Positions 28,793 through 37,624 of a stretch of DNA of 64,000 bases are shown here, one piece after another; the stretch's first letter is position 1, and each line of letters opens with the position of its first letter. The translations under genes and the position numbers were made by a program. The DNA lies in contig CAWHCF010000020.1 in the NCBI GenBank assembly GCA_963827655.1, positions 96,001 through 160,000 on the forward strand. The letters are read 5' to 3'. The stretch is from an uncultured Acidobacteriota bacterium. Lineage in GTDB: Bacteria > Acidobacteriota > UBA6911. The notes under the pieces are model-generated. The model was not told where the DNA came from. It made no database searches and worked only from the letters and a program-made list of their open reading frames with translations.

Positions 28793-30439
28793 CTAGAGCA
28801 AGGGTTTCAGCCGGCCATATCCGGACCGGCTCACCGGCAGCTTCGTCCCGTCGGCAAGGATGGCGACCCGGCTGTCCTTGGCGTACAGTTCAAGCCGCAC
28901 CATGCGCTCGACATTCAAGATATACGACCGGTGAATGCGGATAAAACGGTCGCTGTCGAGCAGCGCTTCCAGCTCGTTTAGCGTTTGCTGCTTGAGGTAA
29001 TCCTTGCCTCCGGCCTTGATACAGACGTAGTCATCCTGGGCTTCGACGTAGTCGATCTTTCCCACAGCAATGACGTGGACCCGGGAGCCATCCCTGACCA
29101 GGACCCGCTCTGATTTTCTTTCGGGAATGCGCGCGCTGGCCGCCAGGCCGGCCGCGGGCAGAGTCTCTCTGCGGCGGAACTTCTCGCGGGCATGGCCGAT
29201 GGCCTCCGCGAGCCGCTCCGGGCTGAAGGGCTTCAGCAGATAGTCCACGGCGTGGACCTCGAAGGCCTTCAGGGCATACTCGTCATAAGCGGTTATGAAG
29301 ATCACGGCCAGGTTTCGCTCGATCAGCTCAAGAACCTCGAAGCCGTTGAGTTTCGGCATCTGAATATCGAGGAACAGGATATCGGGCTTGAGCTCGGTAA
29401 CCGTCTTCACCGCCTCAAAGCCATTGGAGCATTCGGCCAGGATTTCGATTTCGGGGAAGGCGGAGAGATACTCTCTTAGAACTTCGCGAGCCGGTTGCTC
29501 ATCGTCTACGATCACGCAGCCGAGCTTTTCGCGTCCCGAGAAATCGGAGGGGCTCTCCGGGAATCGCCGGCGCGCTTCCAGGCTGAAGTCCGTTTCTTGC
29601 TTGAGTTGACGCAGATCGGCCAGCAGTTCACCGGCTGACTGGTAGCGCGCCCGGAGATTCTTCTCGAGCGTTTTCTTGATGATGGCTTCCAATTCTGCGG
29701 GCAGGTCCGGGTTGATGCCGGCAGGAGGAACCGAAGTCTTGTTCAGGATCGAGTCGAAGACGAGCGCGGGAGTATTCCCCGCAAAGGCTTGCTTGCCCGT
29801 GCTCATCTCGTAAAGCACCGACCCGAAGGAGAAAAGGTCGCTGCGGGCGTCGATCGGCTCTCCGCGAGCTTGTTCAGGAGACATGTAAGCCACGGTTCCC
29901 ATCAATGCATTCGTGCGCGTCAAAGGGGGATCCGATTCCAGGGTGGTATCGCGTCCTTCGGTCCCTTGCGCCGAAAACTTCGCCACGCCGAAGTCCAGCA
30001 CCTTGGCCTGTCCGCGCTCGGTCAGCAAGATATTGGCCGGCTTGACGTCCCGATGCACAATTCCCTTGGAATGCGCGGCGTCCAGGGCATCGACGATCTG
30101 AATCGACAGTTCGAGAATCTCTCCGATCTTAAGGGGCCTGCCGGCGCAGTGCTGGTTGAGCGTATCTCCTTCCAGAAACTCCATCACGATAAAGGGCTGT
30201 TTTTGATGCTCGGCCACATCGTAGATGGTGCAGATGTGAGGGTGATTCAGCGCCGAGGCGACACGCGCTTCCCGCTGGAAGCGTTCCAGAGCGCGGCGAT
30301 CTTTTGACAACTCTTCCGGCAGAAATTTCAGCGCCACGAGCCGATTGAGCCGCGTGTCCTGCGCTTTGTAGACCACGCCCATGCCGCCGGCTCCCAGCTC
30401 CTCGAGAATCCTGTAATGAGCTACGGTTTTGCCGGTCAT
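28793..30439 (-). CDS. Ser/Thr protein kinase - REC - LytTR fusion response regulator
   Basis: GAGGMGVVY, VALK, HRDVKPANI, DFG, GTVAYMSPE; then VIVDDE...LFLDIQMP...FITAYD...YLLKP; then RIHRSYILN...VSRS (LytTR); one continuous frame. Confidence 0.88.
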   Translation of the reverse strand: MTGKTVAHYRILEELGAGGMGVVYKAQDTRLNRLVALKFLPEELSKDRRALERFQREARVASALNHPHICTIYDVAEHQKQPFIVMEFLEGDTLNQHCAGRPLKIGEILELSIQIVDALDAAHSKGIVHRDVKPANILLTERGQAKVLDFGVAKFSAQGTEGRDTTLESDPPLTRTNALMGTVAYMSPEQARGEPIDARSDLFSFGSVLYEMSTGKQAFAGNTPALVFDSILNKTSVPPAGINPDLPAELEAIIKKTLEKNLRARYQSAGELLADLRQLKQETDFSLEARRRFPESPSDFSGREKLGCVIVDDEQPAREVLREYLSAFPEIEILAECSNGFEAVKTVTELKPDILFLDIQMPKLNGFEVLELIERNLAVIFITAYDEYALKAFEVHAVDYLLKPFSPERLAEAIGHAREKFRRRETLPAAGLAASARIPERKSERVLVRDGSRVHVIAVGKIDYVEAQDDYVCIKAGGKDYLKQQTLNELEALLDSDRFIRIHRSYILNVERMVRLELYAKDSRVAILADGTKLPVSRSGYGRLKPLL

Positions 30440-31569
30440 GGCCGTGAACGTCTGGTGGCAAGAGGCTCCCGGTCGCGACCGGTAGTGTTTTGCGGATCCA
30501 GTGGAGGCTTATTCTCGAAAACCGCGGGAAGCGTGAGTTCCACACGGAAGTGGCCATCCTTCTCCTGCACGTCCACGCGAGACTCCGATCCATGAAGCGT
30601 CGCCAGGCGGCTGCGCACATTCTGAAGGCCGAGTCCTTGTCGCGTTGCTTGTGGCCGCTCACGATCGCAGGGGTTATCGATCGCGATTCTGAGCCGATCT
30701 CCCCTTCTTTCGGTCTTGATGCGGATGGTTCCTCCCTCGATCAGCTGGGCGATACCGTGGTTGACGGCGTTTTCAACCAGGGGTTGAAGAAGAAGCGGAG
30801 GCACCAGGCAGTCCTTGCTGGCTTCGTCGATTTCCTGTTCTACTCTCAGGCGCGAGCCGAAACGAACCCGCTCGATGGAGAGAAAATTCGACGCCAGCGC
30901 AATCTCTTCGACCAGGGGAATATTCTGCTGCGCTCCCAGGCTGATGCTCTTGCGGAGGAAATCCGCCAGCAGCAGGCACATCCTTCGCGCGCCCGCACTA
31001 TCGGTGGCGATGAGAGAGCTGACGGAGTTGAGGCTATTGAAGAGGAAATGCGGATCGATCTGGGCTCTCAGCGCCTTGAGCTCAGCCTCGCGAGCCAGAA
31101 TCTCGTGCTCCAGCGCAAGCCGCTCCGATTCCCGGGCGACCTCAAAGCTTCCTATTACGTAGTTCACGGCGATCGCAAGATAGAAAAGGAGGATTCCCAC
31201 GCCGAGCAGCAGCGGGACTTCAGCGTTATAGCGCTCACTGAGCGTGGCAAACTTCGGGATGAACGAGAGCAGGGATACGTAGAGTTTACCCGTGAGGATC
31301 CACCAGGTGCTGGAGAGAAAAGCCGCGATCGTATGGACACTGAAGAGCCGGACAAAGCCTGTGCGCCGAAGCGGGAGCGCGCGGCACAAGTACCAGCTGG
31401 GAAGACAGATGAACGCATACTCGGATGCCAGCGGGAACGCAACGACGACGGACTCCGTCCAGGAGAGGCGTCCCGAGAGTGCCAGCAGAGTAGCGAGAAG
31501 GCAGGCTACGGGGAACCAGGCAGCGAGATAAATTCGAAGAATTCCTTTTTGCGTGGCAATGGGGTGCAT
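30436..31569 (-). CDS. LytS/YehU-family sensor histidine kinase
   Basis: N-terminal TM helices; ALRAQIDPHFLFNSLN; LLLQPLVENAVNHG; GLGLQNV; stop overlaps the kinase ATG. Confidence 0.92.
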   Translation of the reverse strand: MHPIATQKGILRIYLAAWFPVACLLATLLALSGRLSWTESVVVAFPLASEYAFICLPSWYLCRALPLRRTGFVRLFSVHTIAAFLSSTWWILTGKLYVSLLSFIPKFATLSERYNAEVPLLLGVGILLFYLAIAVNYVIGSFEVARESERLALEHEILAREAELKALRAQIDPHFLFNSLNSVSSLIATDSAGARRMCLLLADFLRKSISLGAQQNIPLVEEIALASNFLSIERVRFGSRLRVEQEIDEASKDCLVPPLLLQPLVENAVNHGIAQLIEGGTIRIKTERRGDRLRIAIDNPCDRERPQATRQGLGLQNVRSRLATLHGSESRVDVQEKDGHFRVELTLPAVFENKPPLDPQNTTGRDREPLATRRSRP

Positions 31570-31571
31570 GC

Positions 31572-32285
31572 TCAGTTCTTGGTTTCGACCCCGCCCATGA
31601 TGGCAAATCCTTTGACTACGAGCCGCTTCTTCGGTTCTCCCTGAGGCGGTCGCGTCGTATCCTCGAATCCGCCCATAAGAGGGAAGCCCTGGGAGACCAC
31701 AGTCCAGTCTTCGGGCACCTTGATCTCGATTCCTCCCCACCAGGCGAAGGTGTGAATGACAGCTTCCTCGCGCTGAATGTCGCACTCGCGCAAATCAATC
31801 TCGCATCCACCCATGATCGCGGTGAACTCTCCACTCCGGAAGTCTTTTGAATTGCAGCTTCGTACGACACCCCCCATTACGGCGATTGCGCTGATTGTGG
31901 AGTCTGGGTCGACGGGTATGTTGGGCTTGTCTGCGATCGCGATCTTTGAACTGCGAGCAAAAGCCTGCCATACCATGCTTCCGCCGATGGCGACCAGGAT
32001 CAGGGGCCAGTAGTCCCAGATTGAAAAACGAATGAGACGCAGATTGCTGAGCAGCCACAGAGTACCAACCAGCGAGAACACTATTCCGGCCGCGCGTCCC
32101 GGCGTGCTCGTCGACTGGATCAGCTTGGTCAGGCCCACCGCAATGATACCCGCGGGCCAGAGGCGAAAATATTCCTCGGCTTCCAGGACGTCAAGATTGT
32201 CCAGAGTGAAGAGAACTCCGAACACGATTGCCAGGAGACCGAGTACCAGCTGCGGCGTCACTCGGAAGGAAGGGCTATCTTCCAT
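31572..32285 (-). CDS. LiaF-like membrane protein (DUF5668 plus DUF2154-like C-terminus)
   Basis: Four TM segments with LWP/YWP motifs; AIMGG.EIDLR, GGIEIKVPEDW. Confidence 0.8.
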   Translation of the reverse strand: MEDSPSFRVTPQLVLGLLAIVFGVLFTLDNLDVLEAEEYFRLWPAGIIAVGLTKLIQSTSTPGRAAGIVFSLVGTLWLLSNLRLIRFSIWDYWPLILVAIGGSMVWQAFARSSKIAIADKPNIPVDPDSTISAIAVMGGVVRSCNSKDFRSGEFTAIMGGCEIDLRECDIQREEAVIHTFAWWGGIEIKVPEDWTVVSQGFPLMGGFEDTTRPPQGEPKKRLVVKGFAIMGGVETKN

Positions 32286-32673
32286 TTTGCTCCTCCGCGG
32301 GCGTGTTCGCCGGTGATTCAGGCCTGAGAGCACTCCAGACTATGGAGATTCCGATCGCCAGAATCAAGAGAGGCCAGGACTTGCTAAAACCAAGGCCGAA
32401 GAGTTTGAGATTCGAGATCAGCAACCATGCGCCGACCGTGCAGAGCCAGACCCCCTCGTCCGTGTTTTTCTTGTCTCCCGGTCGAACGAGTTTGTTGACA
32501 CCAACGCCGATCAATACCAGAGGCCAGTAGCGCCATACCCCTCTCAGCTCAAGCAGATCCAGATTGGCCAGAAACAAGGCGACCCCCGCCAGGACCAGCG
32601 TTGCGCCCGTAACCAGCTGGGCGATCGTGCGGGGAGAAGAATCAGTGTTCGTTTTACTCTCCGGGTCTGTCAT
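32275..32673 (-). CDS. LiaI/LiaF-like TM protein (DUF5668)
   Basis: GATLVLAGVALFLANL, WRYWPLVLIGVG, SWPLLILAIG; AAGGAGG RBS. Confidence 0.75.
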   Translation of the reverse strand: MTDPESKTNTDSSPRTIAQLVTGATLVLAGVALFLANLDLLELRGVWRYWPLVLIGVGVNKLVRPGDKKNTDEGVWLCTVGAWLLISNLKLFGLGFSKSWPLLILAIGISIVWSALRPESPANTPAEEQNGR

Positions 32674-33711: not shown

Positions 33712-33877
33712 CATTCAGTGTTGGCGAAGCTTGCTTCGCCAAATAAGGCGGTAGCAAGCTCCGAAACCTCACCGCAAGTAGGGCGGCGCCTTGCGCCCGG
33801 GTCGCACTGGAGGTTTGTTAGGACCATTCGGTCAAGTGGAGAGCTCGCGGGCAAGCTGATTGTCCCTGATCTGATCA

Positions 33878-33903
33878 GGGAGGCCCGGATTTCCGGACCT
33901 CCC
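33878..33903 (-). terminator. terminator-like hairpin after the Cys-rich peptide gene
   Basis: GGGAGGTCCGG-AAAT-CCGGGCCTCCC on the minus strand, 11 nt after the stop; no poly-U tail. Confidence 0.5.
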
Positions 33904-33914
33904 CGTGTCCTTCC

Positions 33915-34031
33915 TTACAGGCAACAACCCAAGCCGCAGCAGGAACTTCCGCAGCAGGATTGGGCGCTGACAAAGGCGCTGGCCGCAAAGAAGGTCAGAA
34001 CCAGAGCTAGGCCTAAGAAAGCTCTTCTCAT
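33915..34031 (-). CDS. 38-aa secreted Cys-rich peptide (absent from the ORF track)
   Basis: AAGGAG RBS; MRRAFLGLALVLTFFAASAFVSA|QSCCGSSCCGLGCCL*; classic signal peptide; downstream hairpin. Confidence 0.75.
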   Translation of the reverse strand: MRRAFLGLALVLTFFAASAFVSAQSCCGSSCCGLGCCL

Positions 34032-34032
34032 G

Positions 34033-34112
34033 GCACTCTCCTTAAGAAAGAAATTGGATTTTGAAAAAGAGACAGCTGGGCGCGTCCGTTTCTTTCTAAA
34101 TCCGGAGAACGC
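34033..34112 (-). promoter_or_regulatory. SD-sequestering mRNA hairpin joining the leader 3' end to the peptide RBS
   Basis: 5' arm GCGTTCTCC-GGA-TTT-AGAAAGAAA pairs with 3' arm TTTCTTTCT-TAA-GGAGAGTGC. Confidence 0.6.
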
Positions 34113-34443
34113 GGTTTTTGATGAAGAGGGGAACCTCGATTACTCGAAGTGAAGGCGATTCGAACCAGGTCGCGGACGCGGTCAGGCAGACTCCGCTTAC
34201 TAAGTCCGAGAGCGCTGGCTGAAAAACTTTCAGAGACCGCTCGCCGGCAATGAAACTGCTATCCACACAGCTGGAACAGGAGGGGCTTTCGTCGTGCGGT
34301 CCGCAGCAGTCTCGCTGTTCGTCCGTGCACTGTTTGGCGTCAGCCGTCCGAGCCGTCTGCGGCAATACTTCTGGACAAGCGAGCGCGCATGTAACAGCGA
34401 GGAAAAAGAGAATCATGTAAGAGAGCAAGAAAAACCGTCTCAT
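34096..34443 (-). CDS. Cys-rich secreted leader-type protein (DUF2946/HYC_CC_PP-like)
   Basis: Signal peptide, C...CC...CSSC, C-terminus PLFIKNRVLRI*; TATAAT 5 nt upstream of ATG. Confidence 0.65.
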   Translation of the reverse strand: MRRFFLLSYMILFFLAVTCALACPEVLPQTARTADAKQCTDEQRDCCGPHDESPSCSSCVDSSFIAGERSLKVFQPALSDLVSGVCLTASATWFESPSLRVIEVPLFIKNRVLRI

Positions 34444-34448
34444 AACTC

Positions 34449-34478
34449 ATTATAACGATCAAGTGTCCGCATGGTTCC
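34449..34478 (-). promoter_or_regulatory. promoter for a leaderless transcript
   Basis: Minus strand GGAAC-N17-GTTATAAT-GAGTT-ATG: perfect -10 hexamer, no SD, ECF-like -35. Confidence 0.5.
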
Positions 34479-34685
34479 CCCATTTTGCGCGCACCGGGTA
34501 ATTCGGGGCAATCATTTTCTGCTGCGGGACGAGTCGGCGCCTGATCGTCGACACGCGCAAGTTCCCTGCCAAGCGACCCGGGCCATGCCAGGCCGTTTCT
34601 CTATTTGAATTGGGGCGAACGGGAGAACGAAGGGATGAACCAGTCCTGCACTGCGATGAAGAATCTGCTCACCGATGGCGCATAT

Positions 34686-34782
34686 GTCATTGGTCATCAG
34701 TCATTGGTCATTTTTCATTGATGAACCGGTATTGCGCAAAGGATCCAGAAATGACAAATGACCAATGACCAATGACCGATGG
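34686..34782. repeat. heptamer (TCATTGG / CCAATGA) inverted arrays
   Basis: GTCATTGGTCATCAGTCATTGGTCAT ... ATGACAAATGACCAATGACCAATGAC. Confidence 0.75.
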
Positions 34783-35331: not shown

Positions 35332-37475
35332 CTACTGCACTTCGTACAGGTCGATGGATTTCCCCTGGAGGTACTTGTCGAACCAGTTCAGAATGTGCTG
35401 CAGTCTCTCGACCCGGTGCCACGGCTTTCCGGATCGTGAGAGTTCATGCGTCTCGTCCGGAAAGCGCACGAGGGCCGTTGGTTTTCTAAGATACTTGAGT
35501 GCGCGAAACATCACCTCGCCCCCTTCAGAGGGAGGCGTACGATAGTCGGTTTCCCCCTCGATAAACATGAGCGGCGTCGTCACCTTTGAGACGTGAGTGA
35601 TGGGCGACCGCGCCGCGAAATCTGCCGCATCCTGCCAGGGGGCGCCCCTGAACCAGGTTGGCGTGAAGAGCGTAAAATCGGCGGTGTACCAGAAACCGGC
35701 CCAGTCGGCGATCGAGCGTTGCGCTACCGCCGCTCGAAACCGGCTGGTCTGGGTGACGACCCAGTTGGTCAGCAGCCCGCCTCCACTGCCTCCCGTAACG
35801 CCCAGGCGCTCCGGATCGACATAACCTCGCTTGAGCACATCATCGACTCCGGCCATCAAGTCTTTAAAATCATCGCCCGGATAGCGGTATTGGATGATGT
35901 TTCCAAAGTCCTGCCCGTACGCCGAACTGCCGCGCGGATTTGTGTAGAGCACGACATATCCCTTGGCGGCCATCCAGTGAAACTCGTGGGTGAACGTGTG
36001 GCCGTAGGCCGCGTGAGGTCCTCCGTGAATCTCCAGGATCATGGGATATTTCTTGGCAGGGTTGAAATCCGGCGGCTTCTGAATCCACCCATGAATTTTC
36101 TTTCCATCGAAGCTGGTATACCAGATCTCCTCGGGTGCGCTCAGCTCCAGCTCGGAGAACAGGGAGTCGTTGAAGCGGGTGACCTGGGTCATTCTTCCCG
36201 TGGTGCCGTCCAGGAGGAAAAGATCGCCAATGCTGGTTGCGCTGGAAACCAGGACCGCCAGCTTGGAAGCGTTGGAACTCGCAGCGTAGGATACGATCTC
36301 ATGATCGCCCGTGGTAAAAGGATCGACCTTGCCCGAGATCGCATCGATACGGATAAGGTTAGCCCGGCCTTGCTCCGCGACAACTACGATCAACGTCGCC
36401 CATCTTTGTCCCAAATAACTCCACCGGACTGGTTGGCTCGCGGCGGATGCTGGTCGGCAGTCAGGCCGGAGCCGACATCGAAGTCGTACGTTGCAGTAAG
36501 ATTCCTCGGCGTTGCTCCTGCAATCGCATCTGCGACGAACAAATCGGGCTGGCTGTACGAGCGTGCCGGACGCCCGTTCGCAGTCCCCCGGAACGCAATG
36601 AGCTTCCCATCGGGGCTGAACGAGAAGTCGCCGATAGTGCCGTCGATGCTCAAGACCTTTTTCATCTCGCCGCCGCCCGATGGGATGGCGTAAATGTCAG
36701 TATCCGGCGGTTCGTAGTAAGACTCCTTCACTCGATTGGACGTGAAATAGATGTCTTTACCGTCCGGCGACCATGTGGGATTCGTCTCGTCGAAAGAGCC
36801 TGAAGTGAGTTGCTTCGGTTCGCCGCCTCCCGGAACCGCGACCCTCCAGATGTGCCTGCGGCGCTTCGGATCCAGATATCCGGCGTCGTTGAACCTGTAT
36901 ACGGCCTGAGTGATCACGCGGACGTCGCTCTGGCGTTCGGCGGAGGCTTCGCTCGCTGGGGCTTTTTTCTGGGCCAGGTCTTCCGCTGACGCGGAGCTGG
37001 TAAAGGCAATCGACTTTCCGTCGGGAGACCACCGATGAGATCCTGCGCCTCTCGGTATCTCGGTTAGAGATTGTGCCTCGCCGCCGCTGGCCGGTATCAA
37101 GTAGAGCTGCGCCGGCTGGATCTTCCCTTCCTTTTCGACCGCGCGAAGAAAGGCGATCTGTTTCCCGTCGGGAGACCAGCGCGGCGAAAGGTCATGGGGT
37201 CCGGCCGTGAACTGGCGTGCCTCACCTCCCTCAACCGGGACGGTCCACAATGCAGTCTCGTAGCGGTCTCGCTTCGGGTTGACCGATACCCGTACGAAGG
37301 CAATGCGGGAGCCGTCCGGAGAGAGCTGCGGGTCCGCAATCCACACAAAGCGGAACAAATCCTTTTCGGTTATCGAACGCTTTGCGCCGCTGAAGGCGCG
37401 CGGCTCGAATATTCCGCCAGTCGAGGCAATTGCCGCAATGATCCAGAATAAAGTGCCATACCGTATGCGATTCAT
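35332..37475 (-). CDS. S9 family peptidase (acylaminoacyl/dipeptidyl), frameshift ~36395
   Basis: WSPDG repeats; EIHGGPH; GVTGGSGGG catalytic Ser; ETDYR; ETHELSRSG. Confidence 0.9.
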
Positions 37476-37624
37476 CCGGCGCTCCTTGGTTTTGACATAT
37501 ACTATCAACGACCAGGACGCGGCGACACATAGTTTTGGGTCTAACCGCCAGGACGCGAAGACGCAAAGAGTACTTCTTCGCGTCTTTGTGTCTTGGGCGG
37601 TGGTGTTACACGAAGGATTACAAA

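Follow-up and report, generated by a model that had tools for sequence, protein, structure and literature searches.

The 64,000-nucleotide window analysed here, a stretch of contig CAWHCF010000020.1 from the genome assembly of an uncultured Acidobacteriota bacterium of soil (coordinates below are those of the window), raises the question of what a small, cysteine-rich open reading frame, ORF-A (34096-34443), does for the still smaller one that follows it, ORF-B (33915-34031). The two ORFs lie entirely on the minus strand and are a self-contained two-gene unit. We give a probability of about 0.45 to the reading that ORF-A would be a cis-acting nascent-chain sensor, resembling the leaders of the DUF2946 family in its logic and equipped with a new arrest motif at its stop codon, and that ORF-B would be its regulated product. 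What favours a regulatory leader is chiefly the architecture of the ORF-A family and the gene context, not the hairpin that joins the end of ORF-A to the ribosome-binding site of ORF-B.

ORF-A, present as a single copy in its own 8.18-Mb genome, encodes 115 amino acids (aa) and is predicted to be exported or membrane-anchored, rich in cysteine and otherwise disordered; an initial annotation of this DNA had credited it with a signal peptide, CC and CSSC motifs and a PLFIKNRVLRI end, and these facts of sequence are borne out, the N-terminus being hydrophobic. From a basic start the protein is predicted to run into a 20-residue hydrophobic helix that ends A-L-A (residues 2-22, 34378-34440, by AlphaFold2), either a signal peptide or a signal anchor. 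A CxxxC motif, of which C19 lies within the helix and C23 just past A-L-A, opens a sensor-like cysteine-rich region (residues 19-64, 34252-34389, delimited by family alignment and motif counts) that also holds C39, the CC pair at 46-47, H50 and C56-S-S-C59-V-D-S-S-F. The final PLFIKNRVLRI is followed by TAG, and the conserved tail FIKNRVLRI with its stop (34096-34125), defined by family endings and codon variation, is a candidate termination-arrest motif. After a spacer of 64 nucleotides (nt; 34032-34095) comes ORF-B, whose 38-aa translation reads MRRAFLGLALVLTFFAASAFVSA and then QSCCGSSCCGLGCCL: a predicted signal peptide is followed by SCCGSSCCGLGCCL, and the predicted mature peptide has 15 residues, 6 of them cysteines. 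The Shine-Dalgarno (SD) sequence of ORF-B, AAGGAGAG, stands 6 nt 5' of its ATG.

ORF-A belongs to an undescribed family whose members come from a single class of the window's phylum and from metagenomes. When 5.8 billion protein clusters were searched with ORF-A, 2 proteins, out of 14 candidates, were returned at 55-57% identity, and a profile search of 1.84 billion representatives returned 19 proteins at E<=1e-3. Among 137 genomes of the window's class, 12 were matched at E<=0.01 and 9 proved on inspection to be genuine carriers; G027, G036 and G105 (E 0.003-0.007) were dropped as members, since they were without the family motifs. In a sample spread over the phylum, 4 of 401 genomes were matched, every one from the window's class. 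Genome contigs yielded no further locus, and metagenome contigs yielded one, which ends before the tail. Four family members matched no Pfam model at E<=10; a weak match of one of the four to NCBIfam NF041047 (E 0.0048) was judged to be due to chance, the nearest clusters in the ESM Atlas are unnamed hypothetical proteins, and word searches of the literature, which cannot find a motif, turned up no description of the family.

Across the family alignment (24 sequences, 17-59% identical to the query), C19 inside the N-terminal helix, C59 (of CVDTxF) and the C-terminal isoleucine are invariant, and F13, A20, C23, T62 and F64 are nearly so. The N-terminal CxxxC is found in 21 of the 24 members and the CC pair likewise in 21; a CxxC that ends at the invariant cysteine was detected in 13 by script, and additionally in L011 (C-F-K-C) by eye. 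The linker beyond this region is unconserved in sequence and fixed in length, with 55-63 residues from the CVDT cysteine to the C-terminus (median 57, standard deviation 2.3). AlphaFold2, run with the family alignment, is confident only of helix 2-22 of the window's ORF-A (block-mean predicted local distance difference test scores of 94-95 over residues 1-20, and ~43-65 in 10-residue blocks over the rest), and the linker of this member is predicted to be disordered. These predictions support the view that ORF-A behaves as a leader-type gene and not as one for a folded protein.

The end of the protein is uniform in its last residue, all 24 members having isoleucine before the stop, as LRI (18), LLI (2), FRI (2) or FLI (2); the background of C-terminal isoleucine is 2.6% of 2861 long ORFs in the window's own genome. 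In eight loci for which codons could be read, the third-last codon is CTC, CTG, CTT or (for phenylalanine) TTC, the second-last CGG, CGA or CTG, and the last ATT or ATC, and because the tail codons vary synonymously, selection acts on the tail peptide. The stop is TAG in six of the eight loci (~4 of 6 independent lineages) versus 25.7% of the 2861 long ORFs, an enrichment for which our binomial estimate is p ~0.04 against a background taken from the window's own genome only.

The start of ORF-A is also characteristic. A -10-like hexamer, TATAAT (34449-34454, minus strand), ends 5 nt before the ATG, with no SD sequence, and a hexamer of this kind ending 5-9 nt 5' of the ATG, again with no SD sequence, is present at all nine loci that have the 5' end (TATAAT in six; TAGAAT, CATAAT and TACAAT once each). 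In the window's own genome such a hexamer stands upstream of 64 of 8163 long ORFs (0.8%). A hexamer this close to the ATG, without an SD sequence and rare in the genome, makes ORF-A the apparent first element of its transcript, and the mRNA is probably leaderless. At the unit, a generic sigma-70 scan, for which both hexamers are required, gave no hit.

A link to metals comes from what follows ORF-A in other genomes. In G074, G071 and G091 the ORF-A homologue is followed by a gene for a protein with a signal peptide, an HMA domain and a thioredoxin domain (by Pfam), the HMA domain being CopZ/MerP-like by NCBIfam; the product of the third gene, of ~308 aa, matches no Pfam model and is predicted to form a beta-barrel of 12-14 strands (predicted template modelling score 0.63), which in structure best matches the FapF polypeptide transporter and a COG4313 outer-membrane channel (template modelling scores 0.58-0.67, E down to 1e-9). 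This cassette of ORF-A homologue, HMA-thioredoxin gene and barrel gene extends over L055 7534-9714, L056 7552-9860, L057 6877-9323, L059 7439-11565 and L058 940-1871. Transposases are inserted into it in two genomes and adjoin it in a third: a DDE transposase lies between ORF-A and its partners in G092, and in G094 the HMA-thioredoxin gene is split by IS21-type genes. Counted by genome, the HMA-thioredoxin partner follows ORF-A in five, and a mini-peptide with six cysteines (Cys6) in two, namely the window's and G040; neither an HMA-thioredoxin fusion nor a barrel homologue was found in the window's own genome with these queries. A predicted complex between ORF-A and HMA-thioredoxin of G074 scored 0.02 against a mark of 0.32, which gives no verdict and was used neither way.

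In G040, which belongs to the same class but to another taxonomic family, the next ORF after a 63-nt spacer encodes a signal peptide and ECCSLGCCSSGCC, of the CCx3CCx3CC type. This counterpart of ORF-B (L004 1114-1434, minus strand) has no stop past the cysteine cluster and stays open for 106 aa, crossing a canonical terminator-like hairpin with a T-run at ~1240-1270; the open frame could mean that the transcript lacks a stop, that the product is longer or that the assembly has a frameshift. Protein searches found no homologue of its long form, and with the counterpart as query there was no match among shorter or similar-length proteins. As a DNA pattern, CCx3CCx3CC was found in 30 of the 137 class genomes, but nearly all of these hits are out-of-frame CAG/CTG-type repeats and were discarded; on inspection, a signal peptide with the Cys6 motif is confined to the window and G040. 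A search for cysteine-pair patterns also returned a 64-aa ORF of G040 with CCTHECCGECCC (L027 1417-1611, plus strand), which has no obvious signal peptide.

The initial annotation had likened ORF-A to the DUF2946 leaders CruR and CutF. As described in the available text of PMC9426467 and PMC9973294, these leaders are exported, carry CxxC or CxxxC and a RAPP or poly-proline C-terminus at fixed spacing, and act in cis on metal genes, via Rho termination or the opening of an SD hairpin. The likeness holds for the layout, the export helix and the presence of a conserved C-terminus, and in part for the cysteine motifs; it fails for DUF2946 membership and for conservation of the hairpin. By sequence comparison ORF-A is not a member or relative of DUF2946: PF11162 (DUF2946) was matched neither by ORF-A at E<=0.1 nor by four family members at E<=10 (Pfam), an hhalign comparison of the family alignment with three DUF2946 proteins of the same phylum gave a probability of 0.33%, and RAPP is absent from all 24 family sequences. 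The true DUF2946 proteins of the phylum have R[AG]PP tails; PF11162 was not found in the window's own genome, and its matches in 4 of 301 phylum-sample genomes include none from the window's class. The earlier interpretation is plausible, but it was wrong in taking ORF-A for a DUF2946 relative. The 55-63 residues from cysteine to tail in the ORF-A family, compared with 45 +/- 1-2 residues from cysteine to C-terminal motif in DUF2946 (PMC9426467, in its available portion), make the two arrangements analogous, not the same.

CutF of Rhodobacter capsulatus (cutFOG) is, like ORF-A, a small ORF at the head of an operon, with a Sec-type N-terminal signal, CxxxC and a C-terminal motif beside the stop; in both, the leader gene ends in an anti-SD that pairs with the SD sequence of the next gene, and the target of CutF is a periplasmic metal-detoxifying protein (all from the part of PMC9973294 that was available), a role that ORF-B may share by analogy. 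Unlike CutF, to which it has no sequence relationship, ORF-A has an [LF][RL]I-stop tail that is not proline-rich, a start that is probably leaderless, and as target a 38-aa Cys6 peptide or HMA-thioredoxin instead of a multicopper oxidase, and it is known here from sequence alone. A published survey of CutF-like proteins required, according to its available text, PP in the last 15 residues, and most members of the ORF-A family would have been missed by it because just 6 of the 24 have that pair; the window's ORF-A has a single proline. CzcI and CzcI2 of Cupriavidus metallidurans are cited in the accessible text of PMC9973294 as CutF-like proteins, metal-linked and in leader position, without a C-terminal proline motif; they sit upstream of an RND efflux system and are likened to ORF-A by description only.

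CruR (Bp2923) of Bordetella pertussis is likewise an exported upstream ORF with CxxC, a C-terminal motif, fixed spacing and a metal-related operon, but unlike ORF-A it has RAPP three residues ahead of its C-terminal end, a spacing of 45 residues, an intergenic region of 162 nt and, for its target, a TonB-dependent transporter (PMC9426467, available sections). A UCUCUCC-like, and hence anti-SD-like, sequence lies in the first 7-8 nt past the ORF-A stop of L006, L008, L009, L011 and L012, which comprise the four HMA-thioredoxin-type loci with readable downstream sequence and the locus of G083, whose contig ends before the next gene. Its function may be either Rho loading or pairing with an SD sequence; in minimum free energy (MFE) folds it was not consistently paired to the SD sequence. 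The first 60 nt past the stop are C-rich and G-poor in three of the five loci (C/G 2.0-2.6), a tract that recalls the Rho-dependent mode described for CruR in the same part of PMC9426467. The spacer of the window, with C/G 1.3, is not C-rich, and a Rho-type reading was rejected for it.

Arrest with a stop codon in the A site has been described for the motifs NSP-stop, NAP-stop and DGMK-stop, the last of them proline-free (PMC10987492, available text). In that source Fujiwara et al. (2024) selected candidates that lie upstream of secA, secDF or yidC and have an N-terminal signal or transmembrane segment, a conserved C-terminus and a spacer of more than 30 residues. ORF-A shares three of these four features, namely helix 2-22, a tail from ~residue 107 and a spacer of ~84 residues; its downstream genes are ORF-B or HMA-thioredoxin, not secA, secDF or yidC. 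The published stop-codon arrest peptides, as presented there, monitor export from upstream of those genes, whereas the ORF-A family lies upstream of metal/thiol proteins and has another motif.

The product of ORF-B may in turn be compared with metallothioneins, which it resembles in its very high cysteine content (6 of the 15 predicted mature residues) and CC clusters; it is unlike them in having a signal peptide for secretion, in being far shorter and in matching no family, and metal binding would be a property assigned to it by analogy.

The initial annotation had proposed that the last codons of ORF-A sequester the SD sequence of ORF-B by two helices of 9 base pairs (bp), and both pairs of complementary 9-mers are present: GCGTTCTCC (34104-34112) with GGAGAGTGC (34033-34041), and AGAAAGAAA (34089-34097) with TTTCTTTCT (34045-34053). 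When a 116-nt RNA was folded, the outer helix stood and the inner one did not. The outer helix joins the anti-SD strand GCGUUCUCC (34104-34112), within the last four sense codons of ORF-A, to the SD strand GGAGAGUGC (34033-34041) with pair probabilities of 0.86-1.0, whereas the proposed inner helix has a probability of ~0.02: the MFE structure (-32.1 kcal/mol) has GGAUUU:AAAUCC and AGAAAG:CUUUUU in its place, and a structure that includes the proposed helix has -29.4 kcal/mol, i.e. 2.7 worse. The fold has a z-score of -2.65 and is equalled by 2 of 200 shuffles; in 209 of 5000 mononucleotide shuffles, the 119 nt upstream contain a stretch able to form 9 bp with the SD strand when G-U pairs are counted. 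The hairpin observation is real, and modestly above chance.

If ORF-A is a nascent-chain sensor, its hydrophobic helix would bring the chain to SecYEG during translation. With the ribosome at the stop, usually a UAG read by release factor 1 (RF1), the last conserved cysteine would be ~57 residues from the peptidyl-transferase centre and for that reason at or past the exit of the translocon. The tail within the exit tunnel would slow termination, and the fate of the cysteine-rich part would set the dwell time of the ribosome, the signal being either a thiophilic metal (Cu(I), Hg, Cd) or disulfide formation. The termination-arrest leaders TnaC and SpeFL control their downstream genes through a small molecule that keeps release factors from acting at the leader's stop codon; they stay in the cytoplasm instead of being exported, and the tryptophan or ornithine that they sense is bound within the exit tunnel. 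In the window, a ribosome on the last codons of ORF-A would cover GCGUUCUCC, otherwise the partner of the ORF-B SD sequence, and pausing would therefore raise the translation of ORF-B, which would act as a periplasmic Cys6 metal sponge. Such a mechanism would follow the logic of CutF and CruR, in a family that is unrelated to theirs and whose stop-codon motif lacks proline. The model in its full detail, a new class of nascent-chain sensor in which a leaderless exported ORF has a proline-free [LF][RL]I tail that blocks RF1 termination at UAG until a periplasmic cysteine cluster reports metal or thiol-redox state, and so switches on secreted thiol proteins including a 15-residue periplasmic Cys6 mini-metallothionein overlooked by every annotation pipeline, is rather unlikely to be correct in every part.

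A series of observations weighs against the sensor reading, several of them concerning the hairpin. Accessibility of the window's SD sequence is not unusual: its probability of being unpaired is 0.15, and 29 of 100 shuffles of the upstream sequence give an equal or lower value. Occlusion beyond that of shuffles was found at none of the six loci compared (fractions 0.29, 0.11, 0.10, 0.59, 0.30 and 0.76), a comparison in which the automatic choice of SD is doubtful for L009 and L012, whose values carry little weight. Masking a ribosome at the ORF-A stop lowers the unpaired probability of the window's SD from 0.15 to 0.04, as this SD re-pairs with a pyrimidine-rich stretch of the spacer; the spacer has two such stretches, besides the anti-SD strand, that are able to pair with the SD sequence. 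In three homologous loci the same mask raises SD accessibility, in G040 from 0.17 to 0.45, in G094 from 0.08 to 0.27 and in G074 from 0.33 to 0.57. For the window, folding thermodynamics do not give a clear-cut picture in which a stalled ribosome simply frees the SD sequence. Conservation of the hairpin in homologues, on which the initial annotation had relied for a check, did not emerge, and the geometry varies from locus to locus: the MFE partner of the SD sequence lies within the last codons of the window's ORF-A (-8 to -12) and of its G094 homologue (-9 to -13), 4-8 nt past the stop in G040, and elsewhere in G091, G074 and G071, so that it is <=15 nt from the stop in 3 of 6 loci. The fold of G040 is not significant (z -1.13). 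A single change within the hairpin, at its terminal pair (34033), was seen in DNA run X2 and gives no covariation information. Beyond the hairpin, the CxxC is not invariant in the family, LRI-stop matches no known arrest motif and has no proline, and the loci with DNA amount to ~six independent lineages only. The genes next to the unit in the window give no metal link of their own, that link coming from the neighbours of homologues, and the FapF-like third gene of the cassette suits a role of ORF-A as cargo equally well.

ORF-A could instead be a stable exported product that acts in trans, as a disordered thiol-rich metal protein that is secreted or crosses the membrane once, a metallophore-like peptide or an export cargo; the SD hairpin would then bring about no more than ordinary translational coupling between the genes, if anything. 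It would work with HMA-thioredoxin and pass the FapF-like barrel, or in the window work alongside ORF-B, and its LRI-COOH tail would serve as a tag recognised by a channel, by a PDZ domain or by a C-terminal protease. This explanation, the main rival, is a serious one, though with odds clearly below even. It accounts for the conserved three-gene cassette with a barrel resembling the FapF transporter and the COG4313 channel, for the invariant cysteine inside the hydrophobic helix, which would be unusual in a signal peptide that is cleaved and discarded, and for an SD occlusion at chance level in a hairpin of unconserved geometry; disorder fits a secreted peptide as well as a leader. It is harder to reconcile with the window and G040, where barrel and HMA-thioredoxin are lacking beside ORF-A (as they are, with these queries, from the window's whole genome), and with the enrichment of TAG stops, which would be meaningless for a protein tag. 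A linker of free sequence and fixed length before an invariant last residue is, moreover, among the hallmarks by which arrest peptides are found, according to the available text of PMC10987492.

The many cysteines and export signals of both ORFs would also suit precursors of secreted peptides unrelated to metals, bacteriocin-like or signalling, whose tail would serve in processing or immunity, and the patchy occurrence of the unit (9 genuine carriers among 137 class genomes), often beside transposases and in the window beside a highly repeated palindromic element, is consistent with this. It is nevertheless an improbable explanation: no modifying enzyme, ABC exporter or immunity gene adjoins the unit in the window, the HMA (CopZ/MerP-like) and thioredoxin partner is constant in five genomes, and an unconserved linker would be odd in an active peptide. 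An origin of the ORFs or of the hairpin by chance in non-coding DNA might be argued from the failure of either ORF to match Pfam or NCBIfam and of protein searches to find a homologue of ORF-B, but is very improbable indeed given ORF-A homologues with invariant motifs in several taxonomic families, a conserved -10 box at a fixed distance from the start, the strong SD sequence of ORF-B, its counterpart in G040 and the coverage by contigs from RNA libraries.

That coverage consists of metatranscriptome contigs from two libraries, one spanning 33970-34180 (211 nt, 0 differences) and the other 33921-34068 (1 synonymous difference); the former bridges the 3' end of ORF-A, the spacer and the start of ORF-B, although carry-over of DNA into RNA libraries is possible. 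Among the matches listed, 20 runs from 17 studies contain part of the stretch, and those that are labelled are mostly soil metagenomes. On the minus strand, 9 nt past the ORF-B stop, a G+C-rich hairpin of 13 bp without a U-tract (33876-33905; -32.9 kcal/mol, z -2.47) is probably the 3' end or a stabiliser of the unit; a terminator scan did not call it.

In the window the next gene is a convergent alpha/beta hydrolase, and upstream of the unit lie an EamA-like gene and an S9 peptidase. The S9 prolyl-oligopeptidase-type gene is split into two overlapping minus-strand ORFs (35332-36414 and 36390-37508), corresponding to a 372-aa N-terminal part, beta-propeller-like by eye, and a 360-aa Peptidase_S9 part; the split may reflect a frameshift, a pseudogene or a fault of assembly. 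A long palindromic element of TGACCAATGAC-type repeats (34681-34780), situated between the EamA-like gene and the promoter of ORF-A, gave the sole Rfam matches found, which are microRNA-precursor-like and all below the gathering score. Contig depth in soil runs reaches 1233 over this element in X2, versus ~10-20 in the flanks, and numerous contigs are broken at this point; the element is probably a repeat of REP- or MITE-like type common to many organisms. Some 1.3 kb beyond the convergent hydrolase (30436-32673, minus strand), a gene whose translation resembles, by eye, a sensor histidine kinase is followed by two LiaF/LiaI-type membrane proteins (Pfam), which together would form a cell-envelope stress module.

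The use of a nascent exported leader as a metal sensor has so far been shown for DUF2946 proteins only. Should ORF-A act in trans, the family would still be an undescribed exported thiol protein tied to HMA-thioredoxin and a FapF-like channel. If ORF-A is the sensor proposed here, the strategy would have evolved more than once, with the same layout and a proline-free stop-codon motif, which would provide a new arrest sequence for studies of the ribosome and release factors and would link leaderless initiation to control by a leader peptide; unannotated secreted Cys6 peptides would then be periplasmic metal/thiol buffers in abundant soil bacteria.

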